A DNA stretch of 64,000 nt from a virus. Lineage: Duplodnaviria > Caudoviricetes. Positions 12,615-36,507 of the stretch are shown one piece after another. Below the pieces are notes generated by a model. That model did not search any database, had not been told where the DNA came from, and saw only the letters and a list, made by a program, of their open reading frames with translations. Every line of letters begins with the position of its first letter. Within the stretch, counting starts at the first letter, position 1. The translations under genes were made by a program, and so were the position numbers. The stretch is from the IMG/VR virus record IMGVR_UViG_3300008110_007313. The stretch is one strand, 5' to 3'.

Positions 12615-13006
12615 GACACTTCACTCCTACCGTTGCCAATGTCTTTGCTTTGTACCCAGACGCCAGAGTTCTTAATTGCTTGCTCTTGCTCCCAAGTTTC
12701 CATCACAACGTGTCTGCACACATTCTGAAACCACTGATCTACAATGTCTGCATCTACCTTGCCCTGATATCCGGCTTTGATCAATCTGGCAACAAATATT
12801 TCGTTCCAATCCAGTTCAAAACTTCCTTGATGCAGATTAGCAGGATCAATATCCATGCCTAACACAGCAACATAAGGTTCACCAGCTTCTGTGGCCAACT
12901 GCTTGGCTGTTTTTTCAGGCGCTTTGACTTTAGGCGCAGGCGGTGCTTTGGCCTCTACAGGCTTCTCTACCTTCTTGGGTTTTAAGAAACGATCAAATAA
13001 TCCCAT
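12611..13006 (-). CDS. Hypothetical protein
   Basis: Start at 13006 (MGLFDRFLK), TAATG-coupled to queE. Confidence 0.7.
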   Translation of the reverse strand: MGLFDRFLKPKKVEKPVEAKAPPAPKVKAPEKTAKQLATEAGEPYVAVLGMDIDPANLHQGSFELDWNEIFVARLIKAGYQGKVDADIVDQWFQNVCRHVVMETWEQEQAIKNSGVWVQSKDIGNGRSEVS

Positions 13007-13851
13007 TATTTGCCCCAACCATTGCCCCAAAGATCCACGTGCAATCTTGGGCTGTACCAGTAACCACGCTTGAGTGCTTCGTCAGCCACGTTGATTCTAT
13101 TGCCGTCGTACACTGACACTACACCTCCCACAGGCATCACAAACACAGGACCAGCAAAGCCTGCTAGTCTATATTCGTCTACAGCTTGATCCAGTTCATC
13201 AAAGTCTGAGACTTTCTCAACCACAAACTTGAGATATGCAATGCCATGTGTTTCATAGTCAAACACAATTTCTGGACGAATAGCTTCTTCACGTTTTTCG
13301 CCGCTGACGCTGAGCTTGGGACTGACACTGAACGTGATTTCTCCATGCCAGTCGCTTAGATACATTCTAAACTCTCTTGACAGTTCTTGAGTACCGTTGG
13401 TCTCGAATGTGATGTGTCGCAGGCCACGAGCATGCAACAGGTCCAACAGTTCAGGATATGCTCGTTGCCAGCCCAGCAAAGGTTCACCACCTGTGATCAC
13501 CAAGTGTACAGGATTGCCATTGGGCTGTTGCCAGTTGCCATGCGGCAATAGTTCAGCCATTTTGTCTACTAGTTGTTCGGCAGTATAAGTTGGACTCAGG
13601 TGCTTGAACGCAGGATGCCAGCTTGCATAGCTATCACAGCCTGTGTTCACTAGTGGCAGCTCTTCAAATGTCTTGTACAGTTCCACCGTCTTGGCGACTT
13701 CATCTGCTTCTGTGCTCTTCTCGCCAGGCTTGCAACCAAATCCCGAACAGGTAAAGTTACATCCAAACATGCGAAGGAACACGCTGGGGACACCAACATA
13801 TCTGCCTTCACCTTGTGCTGAATAGAACAGTTCACTTACTTTAAATTTCAT
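13006..13851 (-). CDS. queE: 7-carboxy-7-deazaguanine synthase (radical SAM)
   Basis: ELFYSAQGEG..VG.PSVFLR..GCNFTC, ITGGEPLL, FETNGT, SVSPKL, RLHV.LWG. Confidence 0.92.
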   Translation of the reverse strand: MKFKVSELFYSAQGEGRYVGVPSVFLRMFGCNFTCSGFGCKPGEKSTEADEVAKTVELYKTFEELPLVNTGCDSYASWHPAFKHLSPTYTAEQLVDKMAELLPHGNWQQPNGNPVHLVITGGEPLLGWQRAYPELLDLLHARGLRHITFETNGTQELSREFRMYLSDWHGEITFSVSPKLSVSGEKREEAIRPEIVFDYETHGIAYLKFVVEKVSDFDELDQAVDEYRLAGFAGPVFVMPVGGVVSVYDGNRINVADEALKRGYWYSPRLHVDLWGNGWGK

Positions 13852-15330: not shown

Positions 15331-16177
15331 TAGTAGATCCTTTGAAGTGAGTATGCGGATTTTTAAACTGCACCATCTGTTTGTTTACATCGTTCTTGGC
15401 TAGCTTTTCCCAAGGATCCTGGGTACCAATGAAAACATTTTTTATAAACGAAATGTCTTGGCCAATACCATCTAAGTAGCCTGCAATTTTCAACGCATCT
15501 CTATGGCGTAGGTCCATTTGTTTAACACTGTGAAAATCGTTAGGATCACTAGGATTACCTTCTAGCATGGGACGATTTTGAAATGTAGCATCATTGTTGT
15601 TGCCAGTTAAATCATGTCGATCATGTAACACATCAACATCGATACGTTCCCAAATGTCCAGCATGTAGGCCTGTTGACTCAGCCATGCATCACTGATCTG
15701 GTGCGGACTTAGATAGCCCAGCAGGTCCAACCACTTGCGTGGCACAATAGGGAAGATGCTGTATGGATGATCTTTGTGTGTGTGGAACGCCAATAGTTTA
15801 AACTGTCCTTCCCAATCCATAATTTTGGTATCCCAGCTTTGGGTTTCCATCACTGCATCATCATTCCAAAACACTAACCAACGTGCATCACTTTTACGAG
15901 CCAGTTCGTTTACATACTCATTGAGACGAATGTATCCCATAGGATTGAATGTCATGGCTGTATAGTTGACTTTGTTAGCATCCAACCAGGGCTGTAGTTC
16001 TTCTACAAAATATTTTGTGCCAACTTCGTCGTCCTTGTCAAAGCCAAACATAATCTGAATGCGAATTGGAATGTCTGCCAATTCAATTAAACTTTTGACG
16101 CTGCGCTCTAGCATGCCATCTCTGCCCCTGGTGGGCAGTAGAATAGCAATATCATATTCAGGTGTGTTTTCTGTCAT
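15314..16177 (-). CDS. GT-A (GT2-like) glycosyltransferase
   Basis: ILLPTRGR, N.LA, WNDD DxD-like motif. Confidence 0.75.
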   Translation of the reverse strand: MTENTPEYDIAILLPTRGRDGMLERSVKSLIELADIPIRIQIMFGFDKDDEVGTKYFVEELQPWLDANKVNYTAMTFNPMGYIRLNEYVNELARKSDARWLVFWNDDAVMETQSWDTKIMDWEGQFKLLAFHTHKDHPYSIFPIVPRKWLDLLGYLSPHQISDAWLSQQAYMLDIWERIDVDVLHDRHDLTGNNNDATFQNRPMLEGNPSDPNDFHSVKQMDLRHRDALKIAGYLDGIGQDISFIKNVFIGTQDPWEKLAKNDVNKQMVQFKNPHTHFKGSTNVAKS

Positions 16178-16671
16178 GCAAATAAGTCCTCATTCCATTC
16201 TCTATGACCTTCTCTAAAAGCCATGTTTGCTTGTGTTTCGCGTACCTCCACTCGATAGCACCACAAGCGTTGTGCTTCACCCGGACCCCACATTTCAGGG
16301 ATGTACACGCCGTTGACATACTTGTACAGCATGTCGCTCAGGCCTTCGCAGCCTAGTTTTGGCAACACAACAATCTTGGCCATGTTCCGTTCTTGCAACA
16401 GTTGGAATGTTGCCATTTCTGGATCATCCTGTGCCACAATCAGTGTGTGATCAAATTGATCTTCTAGTGTTTTCTTGAGTTCTTTGAGACCACCATAGTC
16501 CGCGGCCCAGTTGCGCACATCCAGGTCATTGGTGCCAAAGTAAAACTTCATACTAAATGAGTAGCCATGAATTAAGTTACAGTGGCTGTCGGCACGCCAT
16601 TGTCTATACGCACATGGAAATGCGTCATGGTACTCTTTGGTCGAAGTGTATTTGTATATTACGGGTTGCAT
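16174..16671 (-). CDS. queD: 6-carboxy-5,6,7,8-tetrahydropterin synthase
   Basis: SHCNLIHGY, DYGGLKELK..LEDQFDH, EVRETQAN.A. Confidence 0.88.
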   Translation of the reverse strand: MQPVIYKYTSTKEYHDAFPCAYRQWRADSHCNLIHGYSFSMKFYFGTNDLDVRNWAADYGGLKELKKTLEDQFDHTLIVAQDDPEMATFQLLQERNMAKIVVLPKLGCEGLSDMLYKYVNGVYIPEMWGPGEAQRLWCYRVEVRETQANMAFREGHREWNEDLFA

Positions 16672-16746
16672 TGTTTGTCCTCCTATGACATTTTAGCATA
16701 GGCAGCAGAGTTTGTATAGCGGGATGATGCCGGACAGGCCGCTGGG
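16672..16746 (-). promoter_or_regulatory. Candidate structured leader RNA (riboswitch-like) of queD
   Basis: P1 AGCGG/CCGCU with an A-rich tail AUACAAACU; loop GGCAUCA complementary to UGCUGCC; CCUAUG/CAUAGG hairpin covering AGGAGG; TAAGTA box just upstream. Confidence 0.55.
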
Positions 16747-16753
16747 TTAATAC

Positions 16754-17155
16754 TTATACTGGCTTTGTGTAACCAGTAGCTTTATAGTTGGCTTGCCCGT
16801 GAATAACACCACGCACCCCGCCAATAGGATTGGCACAGTCTCCTACTCTACGTGGAATCAAATGCACATGCGGATACATCACTGTTTGTCCTGCAGCCTC
16901 TCCGCAGTTGATTCCTACATTGTAGGCGTCCCATTCACCTGACACAACTTTTTGGTGCCCAAATCGAAACGCATATTTCATTGCTTCTTCAATGATAACA
17001 TTTTTGTTCCAACGTGGCACAAATAACAAGTGCCCTTTGGTTACTGGATAAGCATCACGGAACACTGCCACGTGATAGTCCGAATGCTCTGTGGCCTCAT
17101 CTGACCATGGTGCGGCACCTGCGGCTGCGGCTTCTTCTAGTGTTTCGTATCTCAT
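16754..17155 (-). CDS. HIT-family hydrolase
   Basis: D.YPVT.GH.L.VP, G..AGQTV..PHVHLIPR. Confidence 0.92.
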   Translation of the reverse strand: MRYETLEEAAAAGAAPWSDEATEHSDYHVAVFRDAYPVTKGHLLFVPRWNKNVIIEEAMKYAFRFGHQKVVSGEWDAYNVGINCGEAAGQTVMYPHVHLIPRRVGDCANPIGGVRGVIHGQANYKATGYTKPV

Positions 17156-17976
17156 CTTGGGGCAAACTCCTGTTGTAATTTAATGTTGTCAAAGAACTCT
17201 TTCTTTACAGACGGATCAGTCTTGAATGCACCTTTGAGTACTGTGGTCTGTGTCAAGCTAGAGTGTGCCATGATGCCGCGATTCTCACAGCATCCGTGTG
17301 TGGCCTGAATGTACACTGCTACGTTTTCGGAGTCAGTAGCCTTGCTAATCTCGCGGGCAATGTCGTTACAAAGTTCCTCCTGGAGAGTTCCTCTTCGGGC
17401 GCACCATTGAGCGATTCGGGTATACTTGCTAAGACCGATAAGTTTATTAGCAGCAATAATACCAATATAAGCCACGCCAGCCACAGGTTGGTGATGATGG
17501 CTACACATACTGCGCAACTCACTACGTACAACAAGCATACCCTCATAACGATCCTGCGAATCGTTGGGAAATGCTGTGGCGTCTGGTCCTGGTTCATATC
17601 TACCTTCCATGATTTCGTTAAAGTACATCTTGGCCAGTCTACGTGCTGTGCCATGACTATTAGGATCATTTTCGCGATCAATCAGCAAACGATCGAGCAC
17701 CAGTTCAAATGCTTCTGTAGCTTCGTTTATCAAATGTTCTTTGTCTGTTTCGTGTAAGTAATCTGAGATGTTATCGCCAGCCCAGAATCTTTTACCATCT
17801 CGTTTCATTCTAGCACGGATTACATCTGAAAGATATGCTTCTTCGTAGCCTTTGTCGCTCATATCGTCTCCGGCTTTTACATACACTTCTTTGTTCAACG
17901 GTGTATATTCGTTTTTAACAAACTTCCGATTGTCGGAACCGTTTATTACAGGGTGCGGGATAAAGTCTTTTGTCAA
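17152..17976 (-). CDS. folE: GTP cyclohydrolase I
   Basis: SMCSHHHQP, GLSKY.R, QEEL, HGC...RG. N-terminal start uncertain (TTG at 17976). Confidence 0.95.
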   Translation of the reverse strand: MTKDFIPHPVINGSDNRKFVKNEYTPLNKEVYVKAGDDMSDKGYEEAYLSDVIRARMKRDGKRFWAGDNISDYLHETDKEHLINEATEAFELVLDRLLIDRENDPNSHGTARRLAKMYFNEIMEGRYEPGPDATAFPNDSQDRYEGMLVVRSELRSMCSHHHQPVAGVAYIGIIAANKLIGLSKYTRIAQWCARRGTLQEELCNDIAREISKATDSENVAVYIQATHGCCENRGIMAHSSLTQTTVLKGAFKTDPSVKKEFFDNIKLQQEFAPR

Positions 17977-18040: not shown

Positions 18041-19126
18041 TCAATATCTACTGAATAACCATTGCTTCAATGGACCTAGGAAATATTGCCGATCTTGTAT
18101 GTGACGTTGATTGTGCTCTAATACGGGTTGTATTTTTTTGTACAGTTGCGGATGATTTTGATCGAACAACCACCTGACCTGTTCAAATGCCAATTCAAAT
18201 CTAAGAGTATTGTCTTCAATGAGATCATAGCTCTCATCAATGATACCGTCAAAGGTTTTGAACCCTAACTGTCTTAGGTCTTGCAGTTGTCCCTGTGCTC
18301 CAAAAAACACAAAAGGCCGACCTGCATAAAGTGGTTTTGCAGTTTTCTCGCTAAAAAAGAAATAATTTTCAAAATTAGTTTCTGTTACTATGCTGTACAG
18401 AGAACGTCGGTAAACCTCCCAAGGTACCAACTGTGCAACTCCCACACCTTGATTGGTTTTTACATAACCGTTGTACCCTTGATTCATTGTGATTGGTGCT
18501 AGGGTAGCTGTTGGCTCAAGATCATCTAGTTCGGGCGTTCGAAATATAGTCTTTACAATATCGGCTGAATATGCCGCAGTTGTTAGATTAACAAAGCATG
18601 CATTCAACAACATTTGGTGTTGCCCAAGTTTTTCAAAAACAAATCTTCTATGCATTTTCAATCCGCCTAGCAGAACATCAAACGTGCGTTGATGATCGCC
18701 GATGCTGTCAATTTGCTGTGTTTGATTATATCTCAGTATGTTTTGTAAAAAATACGGGTAAACATAGATGTTGTCATGACACGGCGGATATTTTTTATGG
18801 TAACCTCCGCACACAATCAAGATATTGCTGTTGTTGAATTTTTGTTGTAGTTTTTGTAGATATGTGTCTGACTCAGCATCTATGGCTTCTTCATCCAGCA
18901 CAATAACACTATTAAACTTAGACAAATCCAGATCTGGATATCGGTTGTCGGTAAATCTAACAGCACAGATTACCTTTGTGTAGTTTCGAACTTCGACTGG
19001 ATTCAGTTGAAAATTACTCAAGGTGGTATCATACACTGCAAACTTGTCAGAATCAAAAACTTCACCAGGATAATGCTCCAGTGATGTCAATGCATTATCA
19101 ATAGAAACAATGATGTTTTCTTTCAT
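18041..19126 (-). CDS. GT10/fucosyltransferase-like protein (paralog 3)
   Basis: YSIVTET...FFSEKTAKP...PF..FG....L..LGFKTF..IIDESYD. Confidence 0.5.
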   Translation of the reverse strand: MKENIIVSIDNALTSLEHYPGEVFDSDKFAVYDTTLSNFQLNPVEVRNYTKVICAVRFTDNRYPDLDLSKFNSVIVLDEEAIDAESDTYLQKLQQKFNNSNILIVCGGYHKKYPPCHDNIYVYPYFLQNILRYNQTQQIDSIGDHQRTFDVLLGGLKMHRRFVFEKLGQHQMLLNACFVNLTTAAYSADIVKTIFRTPELDDLEPTATLAPITMNQGYNGYVKTNQGVGVAQLVPWEVYRRSLYSIVTETNFENYFFFSEKTAKPLYAGRPFVFFGAQGQLQDLRQLGFKTFDGIIDESYDLIEDNTLRFELAFEQVRWLFDQNHPQLYKKIQPVLEHNQRHIQDRQYFLGPLKQWLFSRY

Positions 19127-19713: not shown

Positions 19714-20650
19714 TGTACCAAGCCCATGCATGACGAATCATGTCATCTAGTTCATGATGTTTCCATTTGCCTGCAACCAATTCAAACTTGGCAGCACTGG
19801 CAGTCAGCACGGGCGGATCACCTGCTCGCTTTTCGCCTAATCGAATCATCACAGCATCGCCAGTGACCTGTTGTGCTGCATCAATAATTTCTCTGTTGCT
19901 GGTGCCTGTGTTGGATCCAAGATTGTATACACCAGCAGTAACCGACTGATCCAATGCCATGACATGTGCTCTAGCAATGTCTTCCACATGCACATAGTCA
20001 CGTACACAGGTTCCGTCAGGAGTGGGATAGTCAATACCGTTGAGCACGAAATCTTTGCTGTCACGAATGCTTTCTAACACTCTAGCAATGATGTGTGTGG
20101 CCCCAGGTTCTTGGCCGTGTCGTGCCCGGCTGTCAGCACCGCAGGCATTGAAATACCTAAACGCCACATAGTCCAGACCATATGCACGATGATAGCTTTC
20201 CAAGATCTGCTCTACCATCAGCTTGCTTTCACCGTAGGGACTGATGGGCTCTCGTGGATCAACTTCGTGGCACGGAGTCATGATAGGCTCACCGTAGACC
20301 GCAGCACTTGAACTAAAAATAAACCGCGTCCGGGGCACGGCTGCCATTATGATGTTCAGCAAGTTCAGTGTTTTGACCACATTGTTGTGGTAGTAGTCGC
20401 TGGGGTTTTTGATACTAGGCCCAACCAAGCTGGTACCAGCGCAATGTACAATAGCATCAGGACGAATATCCAGCAGTCTACGATATGACTCGTCGCTGTC
20501 AAAGTCTGCCTGCACAAAACTCATTGTACCCTGCAGGTGCCGGGGTAAAGGTCTGCGATCAATGCCAGTTACTGAGTGGCCAGCATCTTTGAGTTGTAGA
20601 GCAATTTGTCCGCCAATATAGCCAGCAGCGCCTGTTACCACAACGTTCAT
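19706..20650 (-). CDS. galE: UDP-glucose 4-epimerase
   Basis: VTGAAGYIG, FSSSAAVYG, YGESK, FRYFNACGAD, DGTCVRDYVHVED.A.AH. Confidence 0.92.
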   Translation of the reverse strand: MNVVVTGAAGYIGGQIALQLKDAGHSVTGIDRRPLPRHLQGTMSFVQADFDSDESYRRLLDIRPDAIVHCAGTSLVGPSIKNPSDYYHNNVVKTLNLLNIIMAAVPRTRFIFSSSAAVYGEPIMTPCHEVDPREPISPYGESKLMVEQILESYHRAYGLDYVAFRYFNACGADSRARHGQEPGATHIIARVLESIRDSKDFVLNGIDYPTPDGTCVRDYVHVEDIARAHVMALDQSVTAGVYNLGSNTGTSNREIIDAAQQVTGDAVMIRLGEKRAGDPPVLTASAAKFELVAGKWKHHELDDMIRHAWAWYNV

Positions 20651-21861
20651 GATTCAATCTTTACAACTTGATATTTTTCGTGAGCAGCGTGATCACGATA
20701 ACGATTGCCTGCTCGATTCCATTGCTCACCTTGACCAAGAATGATATCAACCACACGATCAACTGTGCCGTTGTTCCAGTCTGAGATCAGACCCATGTTG
20801 TGATGCGGTTCTTGCAAAAGATTTTGCATCTTGTGATAAGCGTCATCTATACTCCAAGGTACATATAATCGATTAGGATCATTTGCAAAAGTTTCAGGAA
20901 AACTACGATATGCAGGATAAAGAACGTTACACCCCAGGGTGTCGGCTTCGGATACAGTGTTAGATACCCAGTCTTGAAGAGCACAATTAAAGAGAACACG
21001 AGTATCATTAAGATGGGCGTAGTAATCATTTTTGCTTATGTTGTCGTAGATTTTGAGCTTGCCTTCTGCCTCCATACGGCGGGCACGTTCAACATACGCT
21101 GGATTGTTGGATCGTAGAGGTCCGCCACTGTAAATTGCAAACTCACACGGTTCGCTGGTGAGCTCACCATACATTTCAATAAGATCCATAAAGAAGCCAG
21201 GTTGCTTTTCTTGGTCGAACCTAGCTGCGAAACCCACCCTCCGCGGACGGCTATCAAACACCTTGATGTTTTCTGCACCGCCAATGCGTTCAAGAACTTC
21301 TGCTTTTCCAAATGCAAGGCCGGAAATGTTGTAGATCGGAGCAGTCCATCCAGCAATACGCATGTGGGCGACCATTTCCTCATTGGTAGCCAGTACTGCA
21401 CCCCCCGAGAAAGCCACCATTTCATTGACCATTTGTTCATATAAATTCATCCAGCGAGCCATGCCCCAAACATGCACAAAGTCATCGGGGTCGATGGCCT
21501 GTGCTAGACAGCGTACAAAGATACGTGGACATTGTTCTCGGGGGATTTGATTCATAATGTAACCGAGACTCTCGATGCCGGGTTGAAACATGTCTTCAAA
21601 GTAGATAACATCCGCACTAGTAACTTCTCCGTTTTTCATCAGTTGAACCAAATTCATCATCTGGCTCATGCTAAAATAACTGCGTCCGTGTGCGTCTAGC
21701 ACTTGGCCTACAGAAATAGCTTGGCTATTATCAATGGTTGTTCCGGGAACATACACAACGTCTAGACCTCGGCGGTCAAACACACGTCGGTTCCACTCTG
21801 TGAGCTGTAGTGTATAGCGGGCTTCGTAGCTCTCTAGGCCCATGTAAAACAGCTTTCTCAT
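20647..21861 (-). CDS. GT-B-fold glycosyltransferase
   Basis: FAARFDQEKQPGFF, QDWVSNTVSEA..LGC..LYP..RSFPE; start at 21861 (MRKLFYMG) with ATGA coupling. Confidence 0.7.
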   Translation of the reverse strand: MRKLFYMGLESYEARYTLQLTEWNRRVFDRRGLDVVYVPGTTIDNSQAISVGQVLDAHGRSYFSMSQMMNLVQLMKNGEVTSADVIYFEDMFQPGIESLGYIMNQIPREQCPRIFVRCLAQAIDPDDFVHVWGMARWMNLYEQMVNEMVAFSGGAVLATNEEMVAHMRIAGWTAPIYNISGLAFGKAEVLERIGGAENIKVFDSRPRRVGFAARFDQEKQPGFFMDLIEMYGELTSEPCEFAIYSGGPLRSNNPAYVERARRMEAEGKLKIYDNISKNDYYAHLNDTRVLFNCALQDWVSNTVSEADTLGCNVLYPAYRSFPETFANDPNRLYVPWSIDDAYHKMQNLLQEPHHNMGLISDWNNGTVDRVVDIILGQGEQWNRAGNRYRDHAAHEKYQVVKIES

Positions 21862-22085
21862 GCTGGACGATATCCTGCAAAGCGTCGAGTGTCCTCGTCC
21901 CACATGTTCTTGGCATTCTTGCCTTGAGCATATTTTGAGTACTGTTGCCAGGCATAACTCTTGAAGTTATACAGGTCCGCTTCGTTGAAACGGTATCCGT
22001 AGTCTACACAAAACTCTTGCAGTTTCTCAAGGTCTTCGAAGATCTCGCGAACACGAGCGTTGGGTTTGATTGTGATTTTTGCCAT
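21858..22085 (-). CDS. Hypothetical protein
   Basis: 75-aa ORF between the T-fold gene and the GT gene. Confidence 0.7.
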   Translation of the reverse strand: MAKITIKPNARVREIFEDLEKLQEFCVDYGYRFNEADLYNFKSYAWQQYSKYAQGKNAKNMWDEDTRRFAGYRPA

Positions 22086-22098
22086 GATAAAATAATCC

Positions 22099-22551
22099 TT
22101 AAATGGCTAGTTGTTGAACAGGTCGGTGAGTATTATATTTAATGAGTGCGCCGTTTTCACCATCTTCGGCAACCTCAATCCAGACCGCACGGCCAGGATA
22201 CTTTGCAGCGATCTGGTCATACAGATCGTCTGACATCATTTCACAGCTTTTGTAATCAAGCTGTAGGATACTGTCTCGGTAGAGATTTTCAAGCCATCGT
22301 TTGAACTGAATGAACTCAATGTCTCGGTCGTTGTGTAAGACATCAATCCATACACGGAAATGAAAAATATGACGATGAGGGACACCAAGGAAACTAACGT
22401 CATATTCATCGCCTGTGGCCAGTGCAGGGTCGGTTGCTGCGGCTGGATAGCGATGAATACCTTCCTTACAAAACGTAACCCAAATTTTACGTTTTGCATG
22501 TTGTTTGATTCTTTCGCGAGATTCGATTTGTGCTTGTTGGTGTTGATTCAT
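22099..22551 (-). CDS. Second QueD-like T-fold protein with an LxxxHRHxF motif (candidate CDG decarboxylase, DpdL-like)
   Basis: EGIHRYP...LGVPHRHIFHFRV...EFIQFKRWL...SCE parallels the PTPS H...HxH...DF..LK layout but lacks the QueD catalytic Cys. Confidence 0.6.
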   Translation of the reverse strand: MNQHQQAQIESRERIKQHAKRKIWVTFCKEGIHRYPAAATDPALATGDEYDVSFLGVPHRHIFHFRVWIDVLHNDRDIEFIQFKRWLENLYRDSILQLDYKSCEMMSDDLYDQIAAKYPGRAVWIEVAEDGENGALIKYNTHRPVQQLAI

Positions 22552-23697: not shown

Positions 23698-24212
23698 GCT
23701 ACGCTATCGTTGGTATACTTAGACCAGTCAGTAAATTTATTACGATTCATTAGCGTATGTAGGCTGTGACACCACACTCCAGGATTGGTAGCATCAAAGT
23801 CCTTGTCATCAATCTTTACTGTGGCATTGTAGTTCAGCAAGCGAACATATGGCATCTTGACCGAAATCATAGGAATGAAGTTGTTGTATTCGCAGAGACT
23901 ACTTTCAGCTAGTCCCTCTACAGATTTTACATCAATGTCTAAAGTGCAAAGATATCCTTTTTCAAGAAAAGGCACAATCATGTCTGTCCATGATTTCCAT
24001 GTAGCAAAGTCGTTGACTTCAGGATTTGGAAAACTCATGTTAGCACCAAAATAGATATGTTCAACTCCGCTGGGATTTCGATCAAAGTGGTGTGCAATCT
24101 CATTCACAGGTTGTATGCCAACTACAAATAGTGTTTGTTTTCCAAACGCTGGAGTATGTTCTACTTCAGTTCCGGTAAAGAACTCAACGTTGTTGTGACC
24201 TTCTCTATTCAT
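23694..24212 (-). CDS. Hypothetical protein coupled to dpdA
   Basis: 172 aa, ATGA overlap with the dpdA stop. Confidence 0.75.
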   Translation of the reverse strand: MNREGHNNVEFFTGTEVEHTPAFGKQTLFVVGIQPVNEIAHHFDRNPSGVEHIYFGANMSFPNPEVNDFATWKSWTDMIVPFLEKGYLCTLDIDVKSVEGLAESSLCEYNNFIPMISVKMPYVRLLNYNATVKIDDKDFDATNPGVWCHSLHTLMNRNKFTDWSKYTNDSVA

Positions 24213-25783
24213 TGCTGTTCCTGTTCAAGTTGATCCAATGCTGCGGTATCTAATTGTACATTATCATCTAAATCACTGTCAACTTCTGGTTCGTCAAAAC
24301 TAAACAGTGCGTTGAATTGTGTACGGGCATTCATAGTTTTCTTGCCTTTGAATCCTCGTGTGCCCACAATCTCCATCCAATAGCTTGAATATGTTTCGAT
24401 AATAGCTTCGGCTGTGGCACGATCTGGTGCCGCAAAGATCGCTTCCACAATGTCTTCAAACTTGGCATAGTCTCCACCCGACCTACGCATCATAGCAGGA
24501 TGTTCGCCAGCATCAAAGCGTCGATTGGCTTCTTGTACCGCAGTCAAGTGCATCCAAACATTGTGTCCCATGAGCAATGCATATGAGAAACTATCCCATG
24601 AAGTCTTGCCTTCCTTGCCAATCTTGTTTAGATCGCCGGGTTTGTAGATGCAGATATCCTTCATCTTAAACAAGTCGCTTAACGGACTGTCTTCCCAGCG
24701 TGGATAGATACCGTCAGCAACTACGCCTGTTGACCACTTTCGTGTGTCTGTGGCGTATTTTTTGTCATCGGCTGAAGGAGCCATGCGATACGACCATTTC
24801 GAGTCGTGCTCGAAGACATTTTCAAAATAGACTTGTCCATTTGCTGTTGCAAGGAACGGGCTGGCGCAGTCAAACGAGATAGTGAACGACGGGTTGACAT
24901 ATTTTCTTACGGCTCTCTGAATTACAGTTAATAAAACGGCCCACTCCAACTTGGAGGTTCCCAAGAAGTGCATCCAATCATGCACACCTTCTTGTAGTAG
25001 ATTATCATAACGCAATGCTACCAGGCGCTTTAGCACCAGGTGTACATCACACATGTTCTGACCACCCATTGACCAGCCATCAAAGTGTGTGTCTGGATAC
25101 TTCACAGGATCGCAGTATTCCTTCATGGTTTCATACCATGTATCGGCACTGGTATGATTGTCGCCTTGTAACACGTTCAAGAAACGAGCACCACCATTCT
25201 TCACACCTCGACGATGACGCATGAAGTATTCGTTATTGAACTTGGTAGCATCCACAGCTTCTTGCAGTGTGGTAATCTGACAGGCTGCACTGGCTTTCTT
25301 GTCATGAATAACCCAGGTAGGAATATCCAAGATCATGCCGTAGTCAGCAACTGTATCTAACCAGTTCAGGATCAGTTCACGCTTCTTTTGTGCCTTAGCA
25401 CAACCTGAGTTGGCTTTCCAGTCGCCTTCCCACAGGCCCTTGGCAATCTGGAATCCACCTGAGTCACCTAGTATAAATGTGCCTGATTCTCGATTGCGAA
25501 CCATGTCCTCTGACCAGTCCTGCTTGTTCAAGTCCAAGTTAGCGTGTCCACCAGAATACAGACTCCAACGATAGGGAAACAAGGCCTTTTGACTGTTGAG
25601 CCAGTTCATTTGTTCCATGTCCTTGAATCCTGTTGGGAATCTAGCAGGATCTACATATGGACCATTCACTGGATCGCGTTGCTTGCCTACGAATGTAGCA
25701 TAGAAGCCAGAGATAGCTGGCAAGAACACAGCATAGTCTGACTGCTTGGCAGTTAAGTTGTCTTGAACTACAGGCTCAGTCAT
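24209..25783 (-). CDS. dpdA: TGT-fold deazaguanine transglycosylase (DpdA-like)
   Basis: ILGDSGGFQ, MILDIP, NVLQG, DGWSMGG, HFLGTS, SFDCASP; sits with folE/queD/queE and the replication genes. Confidence 0.8.
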   Translation of the reverse strand: MTEPVVQDNLTAKQSDYAVFLPAISGFYATFVGKQRDPVNGPYVDPARFPTGFKDMEQMNWLNSQKALFPYRWSLYSGGHANLDLNKQDWSEDMVRNRESGTFILGDSGGFQIAKGLWEGDWKANSGCAKAQKKRELILNWLDTVADYGMILDIPTWVIHDKKASAACQITTLQEAVDATKFNNEYFMRHRRGVKNGGARFLNVLQGDNHTSADTWYETMKEYCDPVKYPDTHFDGWSMGGQNMCDVHLVLKRLVALRYDNLLQEGVHDWMHFLGTSKLEWAVLLTVIQRAVRKYVNPSFTISFDCASPFLATANGQVYFENVFEHDSKWSYRMAPSADDKKYATDTRKWSTGVVADGIYPRWEDSPLSDLFKMKDICIYKPGDLNKIGKEGKTSWDSFSYALLMGHNVWMHLTAVQEANRRFDAGEHPAMMRRSGGDYAKFEDIVEAIFAAPDRATAEAIIETYSSYWMEIVGTRGFKGKKTMNARTQFNALFSFDEPEVDSDLDDNVQLDTAALDQLEQEQQ

Positions 25784-27491: not shown

Positions 27492-30154
27492 TCAAAACTA
27501 AACAATGAAGTAAATGTATTGTCTGTGTTGGTAGCAGACGCAAGGTCCCAATCCAACACACTCAACAGATTGTCAACTTTGCCGTCGACTACAGTGGCTT
27601 CCATTTCGGCATTGTCAAACGGCAAATCTTTAAACCACTGCGGAAGCCTCTGTTCATCTGTGGGATAACCAATAGACGTCCAGCCCAGTGCATTAGGTCG
27701 CAGTTTGCACACAATAGTTTTCATGCCGTCCACAATCTGCATGGAATAATTGTCTCCGTTCATACGACGAAGATTGTTCCAGTTCAGTGCCGCTCGCACA
27801 TGCCCGGGCATGTTGGCTTTGCCAGTTTTACTGTTGGCTTCATCTGCACCATACTTGGTCAAGTTGTTCACACGCTTGGGCGAACCTTTCTCCCAACCTG
27901 GCCGCTCTTTGAATTCATACTTGAATTCTCTAATGCGTTCTACAATCTCGTCTCGGCCAGCACCAGCCAGCAGTTTATTTAGAATTTCCAACAAGAAATC
28001 TTGAATAACTTTAGGAGTGTCACTACGCTTTAGATCCAATCCTGTGGCCTTGGTCTTACCAATCTTGCCTTTGACGTCAAGGCGGTTGCCTTCGATGTCA
28101 ATGGCGTTGACAGCATAGCGTTTCTTAGTAATAAACAATCCACGGTCCGCAACAGTTTCACGACCAGCTTTAATCAACGATCCCATGTCTCTAGGGCAAT
28201 GAAACGCTTGTTCCATAAATCCAGGAAAGCTAGCATTGACCTGTTCAGCGATACTATCGTAGAGCTGAATACAAATCTCTTTTGACCAAGCCATTTTTCC
28301 TTGTTCTACATCTTCTTTGAGCACTGGCCATGCGCTGAAATAACAAGAGTCTGTGTCACCGTAGATGATGGATTTGCCAACGTGGTCGTATTCGCCAGTG
28401 ATACATTCATTGAGATAAGCATCCATGTGTTTGGCAATACTGCGACCTGTTAAGGTAGTTGACTGTCCAATACGCTTGTCAAAGAACCTACAACCTGGAT
28501 TAAGAATAGCGCCATATAAACTATTTAGGTTAATTTTCTTAACCAACTGACGTTTGTCCCAGAATGCAATTTCTTTGGGGTCAGTGGCTTCTTTTTTCTT
28601 GGCCTGTAGTTCTTTGCGTTCACTGTACCAGCGTTCTAGCAGCCCGGGAATAATGCCTTTCTTCTCATAGGTCATTATAGTGCCATTGGCAGTCAATATC
28701 CAAGGTTGGTTGCTATCAAAAATCATGTACCAGATTTCGGACGCCGAGTGTACAGTCTCCTCACCATTCTCCCAGTCAATGGTGATGCTTGTACCTCGCT
28801 GTTGTTCCATCACTGCGGTGTATTCTACAGTGGCAAACAATCCTTCCCACGCGGCTGCAAAGCTCATACCAGATGCCATGCGTTCTCGAATCAAGCGATC
28901 AGTGGCACTGAGCCTTAGTTGTCCTATAATGGTTTCTGGACCCATGTTCAAGGCTCGAATCGCTGACGGATACAGACTGTTAATGTCCACTGATCCAATC
29001 CACTCATGCACGCCTTTCTTGGGATAAGCAACATAGGCGCCGGCTGCTTGTACATCTTCGTTGTCGTTGCGTTGTTTGCGATTGGGCACTACCATGCCAC
29101 GCTCATGAGCTTCGTTGATAATGGCCTGTTCTGTTACTGCCACAGCACCCATGGTGGTCTGCAACAGCACAGTGTTCGCGTGTGCCAGTTCACTTGCTAG
29201 TGATAAGAACTGTAGTTTACGATCTAGTTTGTGTACCAGCAAAGTATCTTGACGGTTGTATTCAATGAACTTTTTAAAGTGTTGATTGTATAATTGATCC
29301 AAGGTACCTTCGAACTGTGTCTTGCGTTCATTGAGCTCGTACTCGCCAATGGCATCCAGACTGTAGCTGTGACGTTCTTCATAGGTATACTTGCGGTACA
29401 ATTGCATATAATCCATGTGCACCCGACCAATCAAGTCGTAAGTTTCGTTTTCTGCACCAAAACGTTCAAACATACGTTTCTTGGGTAGCTGTCCCCAGAG
29501 ACAGAACTTACGAGTATCGTCTTTGCTGAGCACACGAGTGCAACGGTTTATGGTATAAGGAATGTCATAGCCTTCTGAGTTCCAACCGCTGAGTACATCT
29601 GCATCGTCAATAAGATCAAGAAACATCTTGATCATGTCTTCTTCTCGATCAAACAAGAAAGTGTTGTCAAACTCGCTGACCAGTTCTTGTGCGGTTTCCC
29701 AAGTCAGTCCTTTAGGTGGTACCGCTAGGGTGATCAACTGACCTAACCAGTCTAAGTAAACTGAAATAGCTGTGATAGGATTAAAAGGATCTTCTACAGG
29801 GCTGAAACCCCGTTCCTTGTCAAACGCGACCTCAATGTCAAAAAATGCTGTGTGCAGTTCGGGCGCATTTTGATCTTTGTAGTTGTCTTCTAGGCAACGA
29901 AAGATAGGGTTGATATCACTCTCATACAGTTTCTTGTTAGAGTGCATGCGAACTTCTTTACGAAATTCCTTGTTGTTACGAGTGCTGAATCTCGAAACTG
30001 GGGTACCATAGATACTGCGAAACTTACCTCGGGGGTCGTCGTAGTAGAATGTGTATTGTGCAGGATACTCTTGATACTTGCGAACGCCATCTCGGCGTTC
30101 TACAATGTGGATGCGATCGTGTTCACGATCAAAAAGTGCGTCTATGTAACTCAT
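27488..30154 (-). CDS. Family B DNA polymerase (T4 gp43-like)
   Basis: FFDIEV, WNSEGYDIPY, YNRQD, DINSLYPS, KINLNSLYG, YGDTDS, KKRYA. Confidence 0.97.
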   Translation of the reverse strand: MSYIDALFDREHDRIHIVERRDGVRKYQEYPAQYTFYYDDPRGKFRSIYGTPVSRFSTRNNKEFRKEVRMHSNKKLYESDINPIFRCLEDNYKDQNAPELHTAFFDIEVAFDKERGFSPVEDPFNPITAISVYLDWLGQLITLAVPPKGLTWETAQELVSEFDNTFLFDREEDMIKMFLDLIDDADVLSGWNSEGYDIPYTINRCTRVLSKDDTRKFCLWGQLPKKRMFERFGAENETYDLIGRVHMDYMQLYRKYTYEERHSYSLDAIGEYELNERKTQFEGTLDQLYNQHFKKFIEYNRQDTLLVHKLDRKLQFLSLASELAHANTVLLQTTMGAVAVTEQAIINEAHERGMVVPNRKQRNDNEDVQAAGAYVAYPKKGVHEWIGSVDINSLYPSAIRALNMGPETIIGQLRLSATDRLIRERMASGMSFAAAWEGLFATVEYTAVMEQQRGTSITIDWENGEETVHSASEIWYMIFDSNQPWILTANGTIMTYEKKGIIPGLLERWYSERKELQAKKKEATDPKEIAFWDKRQLVKKINLNSLYGAILNPGCRFFDKRIGQSTTLTGRSIAKHMDAYLNECITGEYDHVGKSIIYGDTDSCYFSAWPVLKEDVEQGKMAWSKEICIQLYDSIAEQVNASFPGFMEQAFHCPRDMGSLIKAGRETVADRGLFITKKRYAVNAIDIEGNRLDVKGKIGKTKATGLDLKRSDTPKVIQDFLLEILNKLLAGAGRDEIVERIREFKYEFKERPGWEKGSPKRVNNLTKYGADEANSKTGKANMPGHVRAALNWNNLRRMNGDNYSMQIVDGMKTIVCKLRPNALGWTSIGYPTDEQRLPQWFKDLPFDNAEMEATVVDGKVDNLLSVLDWDLASATNTDNTFTSLFSFE

Positions 30155-36067: not shown

Positions 36068-36507
36068 GCTCTGGCGTCTTTCAAGAAACTTCTCAACATC
36101 CAGCCATGCTTGCCGTGTGCATCAATGCGCTCAGCAATAAAGTTAGCAATGCCTTCTTGTTTTTCGTTTTGTGCGATTTCAAAGGTCTTGTTGAGTAAGT
36201 CTATCATTTGGCCATTGTTGGCCAGCAATTCTTCAATCATGAGTCGGGCACGTGGAATTTTAGTTTGGCCTGAAATAATTGACAGTTCTTGAAAACGTTC
36301 AAAACTGCCAGGTGTGTAATCTTCTAGTGTGCGTATGTATTCTGCTGTGCGGTCAATTGAGTTATTGTAGACTTCTTCGTAGATGCCCCCAAAAAATTCG
36401 TGCAGTTGAGCAAAGTCAGGACCCTCCACGTTCCAGTGAAATAGCTGGGCTTTGATTACGAATGCGTATTCAGTTGCCAGGAGAGTTTTTAAAGCGTCCG
36501 CTAACAT
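36064..36507 (-). CDS. dps: Dps/ferritin-like protein
   Basis: FHWNVEGPDF.QLHEFF..IYEE..D..AE.IR, H.K..WML.S; start at 36507. Confidence 0.9.
   Translation of the reverse strand: MLADALKTLLATEYAFVIKAQLFHWNVEGPDFAQLHEFFGGIYEEVYNNSIDRTAEYIRTLEDYTPGSFERFQELSIISGQTKIPRARLMIEELLANNGQMIDLLNKTFEIAQNEKQEGIANFIAERIDAHGKHGWMLRSFLKDARA

Follow-up and report, generated by a model that had tools for sequence, protein, structure and literature searches.

A conserved H-type pseudoknot in the queD leaders of large uncultured phages is a putative translational switch

The queD leader and its pseudoknot

The window analysed here is a 64,000-nucleotide (nt) stretch of phage DNA (Duplodnaviria; Caudoviricetes) held as IMG/VR record IMGVR_UViG_3300008110_007313, and its subject is the 82-nt leader that lies on the minus strand between an open reading frame (ORF) for a HIT-domain protein and an ORF of the PTPS/QueD family. 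The leader carries a conserved pseudoknot of the H type, which we propose to be a switch acting on the translation of queD. A preliminary description of this locus, made from the window alone, had drawn the pseudoknot as a candidate preQ1-I-like riboswitch; the RNA-sense sequence that it quoted corresponds exactly to the minus-strand reading, and all the helices that it drew were found where it had placed them. The leader and the two ORFs that bound it are laid out below, with P1 and P2 for the two helices and L1 to L3 for the loops.

16754-17155, minus strand: HIT-domain ORF, with its stop codon at 16756-16754
16758-16751, minus strand: TAA(A/G)TA-type box TATAAGTA, which, read from the sequence, resembles a T4-type late promoter
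16743-16739, minus strand: 5' strand of P1, AGCGG, placed by covariation among 116 variants
16738-16732, minus strand: L1, CCUGUCC; consensus across the family, YCU and then 0-6 variable nt
16731-16725, minus strand: 5' strand of P2, GGCA-U-CA (variable helix, conserved mismatch and inner pairs), placed by the anchored register and pair counts
16724-16723, minus strand: L2, UC, whose invariant C adjoins the 3' strand of P1
16722-16718, minus strand: 3' strand of P1, CCGCU, placed by pair counts
16717-16708, minus strand: L3, AUACAAACUC, a 10-nt A-rich tail; the family consensus is WUAYAAAYUC
16707-16701, minus strand: 3' strand of P2, UG-C-UGCC (inner pairs, mismatch and variable helix), whose final CC is common to the hairpin that buries the Shine-Dalgarno (SD) sequence
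16174-16671, minus strand: queD ORF of the PTPS/QueD family, with its start codon AUG at 16671-16669

Between the TATAAGTA box and P1 there are 7 nt, and the stop codon of the HIT-domain ORF falls within the box.

Homologous leaders were compared in an alignment of 116 distinct variants and in a second, model-based alignment, the element being 53 nt long. P1 is paired in 100% of the cells over the 116 variants and shows double-sided changes at three of its five pairs in the first alignment and at four of five in the second; its strands read AGCGG/CCGCU, ACCGG/CCGGU, AGAGG/CCUCU or UGCGG/CCGCA, with AGUGG/CCACU appearing in the model-based alignment. The four-pair core of P2 is paired in 87-89% of the variants and changes on both sides at three of its four pairs. 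The observed covariation score was reached by none of 500 shuffles, and slid controls were paired in only 33-50%.

The same picture was obtained for P2 when its register was set only by the invariant CA and UG, without optimisation. Positions 1-4 were then paired in 89-91% of the variants, with three to five Watson-Crick pair types each (at position 1, AU in 39, GC in 30, UA in 29 and CG in 3, besides GU in 2), position 0 was a U·C mismatch in 115 of the 116, and sliding the register by one base left pairing at 10-28% at positions 0-2. The inner CA/UG pairs change jointly to CG/CG in five sequences, with no exception, and the mean helix length is 4.11 for the native combinations against 3.42 ± 0.08 when loop and tail partners are permuted.

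Conservation extends to the unpaired positions. Thirteen of the 53 columns are invariant and 13 more are conserved at 90% or above, and many of these are unpaired, namely YCU in L1, the terminal C of L2, UA.AAA.UC in L3 and the mismatched U and C of P2. L1 opens with UCU in 60 variants, CCU in 39, ACU in 13 and other triplets in four, its second base being C, whereas L2 takes the forms UC, UUC, CUC, AC, CC, UCC and CCC; its final C is present in 116 of 116, preceded by U in 106, C in six and A in four. The QueD proteins encoded downstream are as little as 33-58% identical to that of the window, and, as far as sequence comparison can tell, the RNA element is under far stronger constraint than the queD gene that follows it. 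Conservation and covariation, on which the preliminary description had staked its candidate, are therefore both present in homologous leaders, and its pseudoknot in the 5' leader of queD was borne out on the 116 variants. We consider it almost certain that the pseudoknot is a functional RNA.

Expression platforms and promoters

Two further features of the minus strand lie between the pseudoknot and the start codon of queD.

16702-16697 and 16687-16682, minus strand: SD-burying hairpin CCUAUG/CAUAGG with the loop CUAAAAUGU, from the RNAalifold consensus
16684-16679, minus strand: SD, AGGAGG, read from the sequence

The 3' strand of P2 is found 23-31 nt upstream of the AUG, the SD itself being outside P2, and in three distinct platform designs this strand can pair instead with the ribosome-binding site (RBS). 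In the first type, that of the window and of 95 of the 116 variants, the CC at the end of the strand (UC where its loop partner is GA) also begins the hairpin CCUAUG/CAUAGG, which covers the AGG of the SD. The hairpin of the window has a predicted energy of -5.3 kcal/mol at 6 bp and of +0.9 kcal/mol without the two pairs that it shares with P2, and, with the aptamer blocked, the SD has an unpaired probability of 0.25 when the 3' strand of P2 is free versus 0.97 when that strand is blocked too. The mean of this probability over the first type rises from 0.32 to 0.67 upon withdrawing the strand. The competition between the loop-tail helix and the SD-burying hairpin, already pointed out in the preliminary description, stands on these results, with the CC of the P2 3' strand common to both.

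In the second type (L010, L014, L030, L055 and others), the strand (UGUCGUC, UGUCAUC or UGCCAUC) finds its partner in GAUGGCA, which covers the start codon and the codon after it, and an inner CCUU/AAGG anti-SD helix forms part of the same hairpin. In the third (L037, L048, L067, L069 and L074), the strand together with AUUG(UU) pairs with (AA)CAAUGGC(A), so that the partners of the P2 3' strand in the start-codon region are GAUGGCA or AACAAUGGC. These anti-AUG helices have energies of -9 to -14 kcal/mol and covary with the bases before the AUG (..AUC/GAU.. versus ..AUUG/CAAU..): the pre-AUG bases are GAG in the second type versus ACA in the third, with a compensating difference after the 3' strand of P2.

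In 106 of the 116 leaders, the minimum free energy (MFE) structure of the platform pairs two or more nucleotides of the P2 3' strand downstream, in 72 leaders with the SD and in 34 with the AUG region. Nine of the ten exceptions are leaders with no script-assigned P2 3' strand, in which the MFE structure still uses its CC, and the tenth, L149, pairs otherwise. Platform segments are more stable when folded than their shuffled counterparts, at a mean z of -1.96. Where the 3' strand of P2 must also pair with the GG of the SD, and only there, the outer pairs of P2 are confined to G-C, A-U or G·U and their 3' side to YC.

From these pairings we infer that, in the models used, the loop strand of P2 would be a mimic of the RBS and the tail strand an anti-RBS. 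Formation of P2 would occupy the anti-RBS strand and free the SD and AUG, turning translation on, and opening of P2 would leave the RBS sequestered and translation off; in the closed form, the 10-nt A-rich L3 would cross the minor groove of P1. Because the P2 3' strand is complementary to both the loop strand and the RBS, P2 formation probably switches translation on, a prediction drawn from sequence complementarity and nearest-neighbour models. Two other readings of the leader were rejected. A terminator lacks a U-tract after either hairpin, and a leader peptide is not sustained by the AUG in CCUAUGCUA, which opens AUG-CUA-UAA in most relatives and another frame in the window.

In 80 of the 116 distinct leaders, P1 is preceded at a distance of 3-13 nt by the end of a TAA[AG]TA box, and a promoter of the TTGACA-N17-TATAAT type occupies the same 3-13 nt position in another 15, so that a promoter-like box of either type precedes P1 in about 80% of leaders. 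The TAA[AG]TA box resembles the core of T4 late promoters, TATAAATA, and the box noted upstream of P1 in the preliminary description is in this way a recurrent feature of the family, although its function as a promoter is putative. Given the distance of these boxes from P1, the pseudoknot is most likely the extreme 5' end of an mRNA. A strong sigma70-like promoter is also found just before the gene for GTP cyclohydrolase I, folE (TTGACA-17-TACAAT, 18044-18016, minus strand, 11 of 12 matches), and read-through transcripts of folE, HIT and queD with the element in an internal position are therefore possible.

A third promoter signal is nested within the element and its platform.

16690-16718, minus strand: sigma70-like signal, TATACA, 17 nt, TG-n-TAAAAT, with 9 of 12 matches and the TG

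Across the family, this promoter signal is close to consensus, its -35 (TTTACA or TATACA) falling in L3 and its extended -10, TG-n-TATAAT, in the loop of the SD hairpin, with a spacer of 16-18 nt, mostly 17. The signal occurs in 86 of the 95 distinct leaders of the window's platform type, 59 of them having a perfect TATAAT as the -10. In leaders that lack it, the C of L3 is replaced by U or A, and a sigma70-type promoter frequently precedes P1 instead. This arrangement suggests that a host-type promoter inside the element may give rise to short unregulated transcripts, while transcripts started at the upstream box may be the regulated ones.

Distribution and pathway context

A protein search of IMG/VR with QueD returned more than 594 related queD loci, and the same element recurs ahead of queD in hundreds of contigs from uncultured phages, most of them from fresh water; it is present in all the checked loci that include upstream DNA, out of 80 fetched. 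A degenerate DNA pattern derived from the tail matched at least 120 further places in IMG/VR, all in the sense of queD and followed by an SD and an ORF. Among the matches listed, 116 of the 118 ORFs that follow belong to the QueD family by BLASTP, and the other two are loci with an inserted ORF (L097 and L191), in each of which a single ORF sits between the motif and queD. These inserted ORFs (L097:7776-8624 and L191:5208-6173, both minus strand) encode 282 or 321 amino acids (aa), and one of the pair shows a faint match to a DUF559 or Vsr-like endonuclease; it may be a mobile endonuclease gene that landed in the leader. At another locus, a degenerate second copy of the motif (L061:1876-1927, plus strand, 30 bits) follows a HIT gene and a TATAAGTA box and precedes an inserted 309-aa methyltransferase-like gene, after which come the intact motif and queD, an arrangement that looks like duplication of the leader upon gene insertion.

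A covariance model built from the alignment of 116 variants found one true copy in the window (64 bits, E = 2e-19) and, in five phage genomes of 208-525 kb, complete or nearly so, placed the motif only before queD. Matches in the window and in the phage genomes are on one strand only, always in the sense of queD. The largest genome (G001, 524,565 bp) has two queD paralogues, each with a motif of its own (29503-29554, plus strand, and 500078-500128, minus strand), P2 being GGCG/CGCC in one copy and GGACA/UGCC, with one mismatch, in the other. The model gave a second match in the window, at 36468-36504 on the minus strand (15 bits, rough E = 0.003), which reads AGCG..CGCU followed by UUAAAAACUCU, without the loop, inside a ferritin-like ORF; it was treated as a chance match.

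Outside phages the element is almost absent. Over 596 Gb of bacterial and archaeal genomes the DNA pattern gave 55 matches, against about 100 expected by a rough chance estimate, and one of the 55 has the full motif (L211:4380-4433, minus strand), on a 183-kb contig in a metagenome-assembled genome (MAG) of Haliscomenobacter. This contig may be a clue to the host or may be mis-binned phage DNA; a search of the same MAG for preQ1 riboswitches gave no score above the cut-off. The DNA polymerase of the window phage is closest (47-51%) to those of jumbo phages such as Sinorhizobium phage Phosso and Agrobacterium phage Atu_ph07. Among isolated phages, no QueD is more than 52% identical to that of the window, the covariance model had no match in the two isolates closest in QueD (Acidovorax phage ACP17 and Sinorhizobium phage Phosso), and no nucleotide similarity of the leader to isolated phages was found. 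The window also carries genes for tRNA-Arg(TCT) at 1204-1278 and tRNA-Met(CAT) at 2388-2464, both on the minus strand.

The genes around the leader run in the order folE, HIT, leader, queD, further genes and queE, and two of them place queD within a pathway.

17152-17976, minus strand: GTP cyclohydrolase I gene (folE), just upstream of the HIT-domain ORF
13006-13851, minus strand: gene for a QueE-like radical-SAM protein, downstream of queD

Between queD and the queE-like gene, on the same strand, are a glycosyltransferase-like ORF, a methyltransferase and an ORF with no assigned role. A T-fold paralogue (22099-22551, minus strand, 150 aa) carries LGVPHRHIF, an instance of the LxxxHRHxF signature, and matches PHROG 17812, of unknown function (E = 3.5e-33); its search against Pfam gave no match. 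The LxxxHRHxF signature has been proposed by Cui et al. for DpdL, the decarboxylase of 7-carboxy-7-deazaguanine (CDG) in phages that lack QueC and have 7-deazaguanine in their DNA (PMC10516641). Searches with the Pfam models for QueC (PF06508) and TGT/DpdA (PF01702) gave nothing credible in four complete genomes that bear the motif (G001-G004), and PHROG or Pfam scans found neither protein among the 25 ORFs on the queD side of the window, where the ORFs at 18041-19126, 20647-21903 and 24209-25783 received no family assignment. Since QueC was not found and the DpdL signature is present, the phage pathway would run through dihydroneopterin triphosphate (H2NTP), carboxytetrahydropterin (CPH4), CDG and 7-deazaguanine, and not through preQ0 or preQ1.

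Known RNA families and the nature of the switch

A cmscan search of the leader against the 4227 families of Rfam 15 returned nothing at E<=10, the unmatched families including preQ1-II and preQ1-III, SAM-II and SAM-V, fluoride, guanidine-III, and THF-I and THF-II. The Rfam model of preQ1-I itself (RF00522), the comparison by which the preliminary description would have had its candidate judged, likewise found no match at E<=10 in searches of 121-131 nt covering window positions 16655-16775 and the AGAGG-type leader L014, and in the five phage genomes it gave only sub-threshold matches, all of them away from queD leaders. The gathering threshold of RF00522 is 39 bits, and in a control of 14 named genomes one scored above the cut-off. 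No description of the queD-leader element was found in the literature searched or in Rfam 15.

The likeness to preQ1-I riboswitches (B. subtilis queC, T. tengcongensis, C. antarcticus and E. coli) is nevertheless considerable. Each is a small pseudoknot of the H type in which G-C pairs close a 5-bp P1, an A-rich L3 comes after the 3' strand of P1 and P2 forms between the hairpin loop and the 3' tail; both belong to the pathway from GTP to 7-deazaguanines, both act at the level of translation, as predicted in the case of the element, and in the element, as in type I of preQ1-I, a U mostly precedes the invariant C of L2. The differences lie in the pocket and in the wiring. After the 5' strand of P1, preQ1-I has U or UU (UU in types I and III) whereas the element has YCU; L2 is 4-6 nt long in the former and 2-3 nt in the latter; P2 has 3-4 bp in preQ1-I but 6-10 bp, with a U·C mismatch and conserved inner CA/UG pairs, in the element; and the tail reads AAAAAACUA in preQ1-I and AAAYUCUGC here. 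Moreover, the P2 3' strand contains the SD in preQ1-I, whereas in the element it is an anti-SD or anti-AUG strand, so that an ON switch is predicted instead of an OFF switch, and the element, unlike preQ1-I, is found almost only in uncultured phages without queC. The pocket residues U6 and U7 of preQ1-I come directly after the P1 5' strand (PMC8752633), and all preQ1 classes covered by a 2024 review act through SD burial or terminator formation upon binding (PMC11625349). The layout of the preQ1-I-like variant originally suggested stands (the 5-bp P1, the A-rich tail and the invariant C before the P1 3' strand). In these searches the element is no member of the Rfam preQ1 families; it lacks the U or UU after P1, and its predicted logic is ON, the reverse of that of known preQ1 riboswitches. 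Going by its sequence, the element would be a preQ1-I-shaped pseudoknot switch with inverted logic that is absent from Rfam.

Features expected of riboswitches in general were found in the leader: a conserved, covarying aptamer with conserved unpaired nucleotides before one gene class, and mutually exclusive platform pairings, as predicted from sequence and thermodynamic models. A comparable logic operates in the adenine riboswitch of Vibrio vulnificus add, a translational ON switch whose anti-SD strand is held in the aptamer. There, too, one strand is complementary to both aptamer and RBS, and the RBS is released when the ligand stabilises the folded aptamer, but the fold is unrelated, the add aptamer being a three-way junction and the element a pseudoknot. 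The THF-I and THF-II (folE motif) riboswitches are, like the element, tied to GTP cyclohydrolase and pterin metabolism and differ from it in fold; they are OFF switches in bacteria, with ligands that present a guanine-like 2-amino-4-oxo face.

We propose, with a probability of about 0.6, that the leader controls translation in cis, as a switch whose core is an H-type pseudoknot and in which P2 frees the RBS and a metabolite is the likeliest trigger. For the trigger taken by itself, a small molecule is the explanation that we favour, because nucleotides of the P1/P2 junction, although unpaired, are invariant (C in L2, CU in L1 and AAAYUC in L3), because a U·C mismatch is conserved in P2 and because the element is tied exclusively to queD. 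The specificity cytosine of preQ1-I stands directly 5' of the P1 3' strand, as UC in type I and AC in types II and III (PMC11625349), and this base, which recognises the ligand by Watson-Crick pairing, occupies the same site as the invariant C of the element (PMC11625349, PMC8752633). Because of this correspondence, we suppose that a small molecule with a guanine-like face would bind at the P1/P2 junction, with 7-deazaguanine, CDG, preQ0, preQ1 or the pterins H2NTP and CPH4 as candidates. On the pathway analysis, the ligand could possibly be any of H2NTP, CPH4, CDG, 7-deazaguanine, host-derived preQ0 or preQ1, and guanine. A more specific version, in which the element is a previously undescribed and essentially phage-specific riboswitch class, a preQ1-I-shaped ON pseudoknot that responds to a 7-deazapurine or pterin intermediate other than preQ1 (7-deazaguanine, CDG, CPH4 or H2NTP, for instance) and gates DNA hypermodification, with a nested host-type promoter in many genomes that would leave a single transcript class under regulation, is put forward tentatively, at slightly less than even odds.

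Several observations weigh against the proposed switch. The MFE of the window leader as a single sequence lies at z = +0.26 relative to shuffles, and its nested MFE structure favours the pairing CAGCGG/CUGCUG instead, in folding energies that cover nested pairings only. The SD hairpin of the first platform type shows one-sided wobble changes and no compensatory pairs, and its conservation could come partly from the nested TG-n-TATAAT and from the SD itself. It is unusual for a biosynthetic gene to be controlled by an ON switch, and no obvious physiological rationale favours one ligand. Finally, the contigs from RNA libraries (metatranscriptomes) that cover the leader represent relatives and are uninformative on 5' ends or DNA origin. 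As to the MFE structure of the window, its pairing of the invariant CUGC with GCGG of the P1 5' strand was rejected for want of covariation, P1 varying while CUGC remains constant, and it is the comparative evidence that places the element beyond chance in spite of the unremarkable single-sequence fold.

The alternative that survives best, even if we regard it as unlikely, is that the pseudoknot is a translational operator of the T4 gene 32 or RegA type, bound by a phage or host protein that stabilises or melts P2 and in this way sets access to the RBS. In T4, the gene 32 leader has an H-type pseudoknot at the 5' end of the mRNA, tens of nucleotides before the start codon, which nucleates binding of the gene's own product, a single-stranded DNA- and RNA-binding protein. 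The window phage is of the kind with a T4-type polymerase and late promoters, and the element resembles the gene 32 pseudoknot in fold and in lying at the 5' end, with the AUG about 30 nt downstream. However, the product here is a T-fold enzyme and the element has many invariant unpaired nucleotides: about half of its positions vary little or not at all, among them the mismatch and unpaired bases at the junction, a pattern typical of metabolite pockets. Its restriction to a single family of metabolic genes, kept across QueD proteins only 33% identical and across phage genomes of 200-520 kb, also speaks against such an operator, and no conserved candidate for the partner protein emerged.

Decidedly unlikely, in our view, is a ligand-independent device that serves as a constitutive anti-anti-RBS, as a stabiliser of the mRNA 5' end or through folding kinetics or temperature, and that could make transcripts from the upstream promoter differ in translation rate from those begun at the nested one. 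The nested promoter in 86 of the 95 leaders of the window's type makes transcripts with and without the aptamer plausible, and the two states of the leader are similar in predicted stability; yet such a device does not account for the invariant unpaired nucleotides of L1, L2 and L3, for the U·C mismatch or for the occurrence of the element with queD alone, and the full pseudoknot is kept in leaders that lack the nested promoter.

An ordinary preQ1-I riboswitch that binds preQ1 or preQ0 and turns queD off is very improbable. The 5-bp P1 ending in GG/CC, the UC before its 3' strand, the A-rich L3 and a gene of the queuosine pathway would suit it, and some relatives read AGAGG...C-CCUCU-AUAAAAA. 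Against it stand the missing match to RF00522 at E<=10 in the 121-131-nt searches and at the leaders of five genomes, the lack of U or UU after P1 and a P2 of 6-10 bp with a U·C mismatch, besides the antagonism between the P2 3' strand and the SD, by which binding should switch translation on, and the consideration that phages without QueC would not make preQ0 or preQ1. That there is no functional RNA at all, the conservation reflecting DNA-level signals (promoter hexamers and the SD) or chance, can be dismissed for practical purposes, for although L3 and the hairpin loop coincide in part with promoter-like hexamers and the single-sequence folding z-score is unremarkable, compensatory changes occur in two interleaved helices beyond the constraints of promoter and SD, the helices persist in leaders without the nested promoter, matches are always in the sense of queD, and 116 distinct variants with proteins diverging to 33% are not clonal artefacts.

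Riboswitches are, to our knowledge, rarely encoded by phages, and the few known cases copy bacterial classes. The glutamine riboswitches of marine phages are one such example of a bacterial class (PMC9004378). The queD-leader element is abundant, with hundreds of variants, is almost confined to uncultured large phages and is tied to the first committed step of the pathway by which DNA guanine is replaced, a replacement that protects phage DNA from restriction (PMC10516641). If the proposed switch binds a metabolite, it would represent a new class of ligand-sensing RNA, or a new specificity and an ON logic for the smallest known riboswitch fold, and would offer synthetic biology a compact ON-type pseudoknot scaffold of about 50 nt. 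It would also mean that these phages control their anti-restriction DNA chemistry through RNA sensing.

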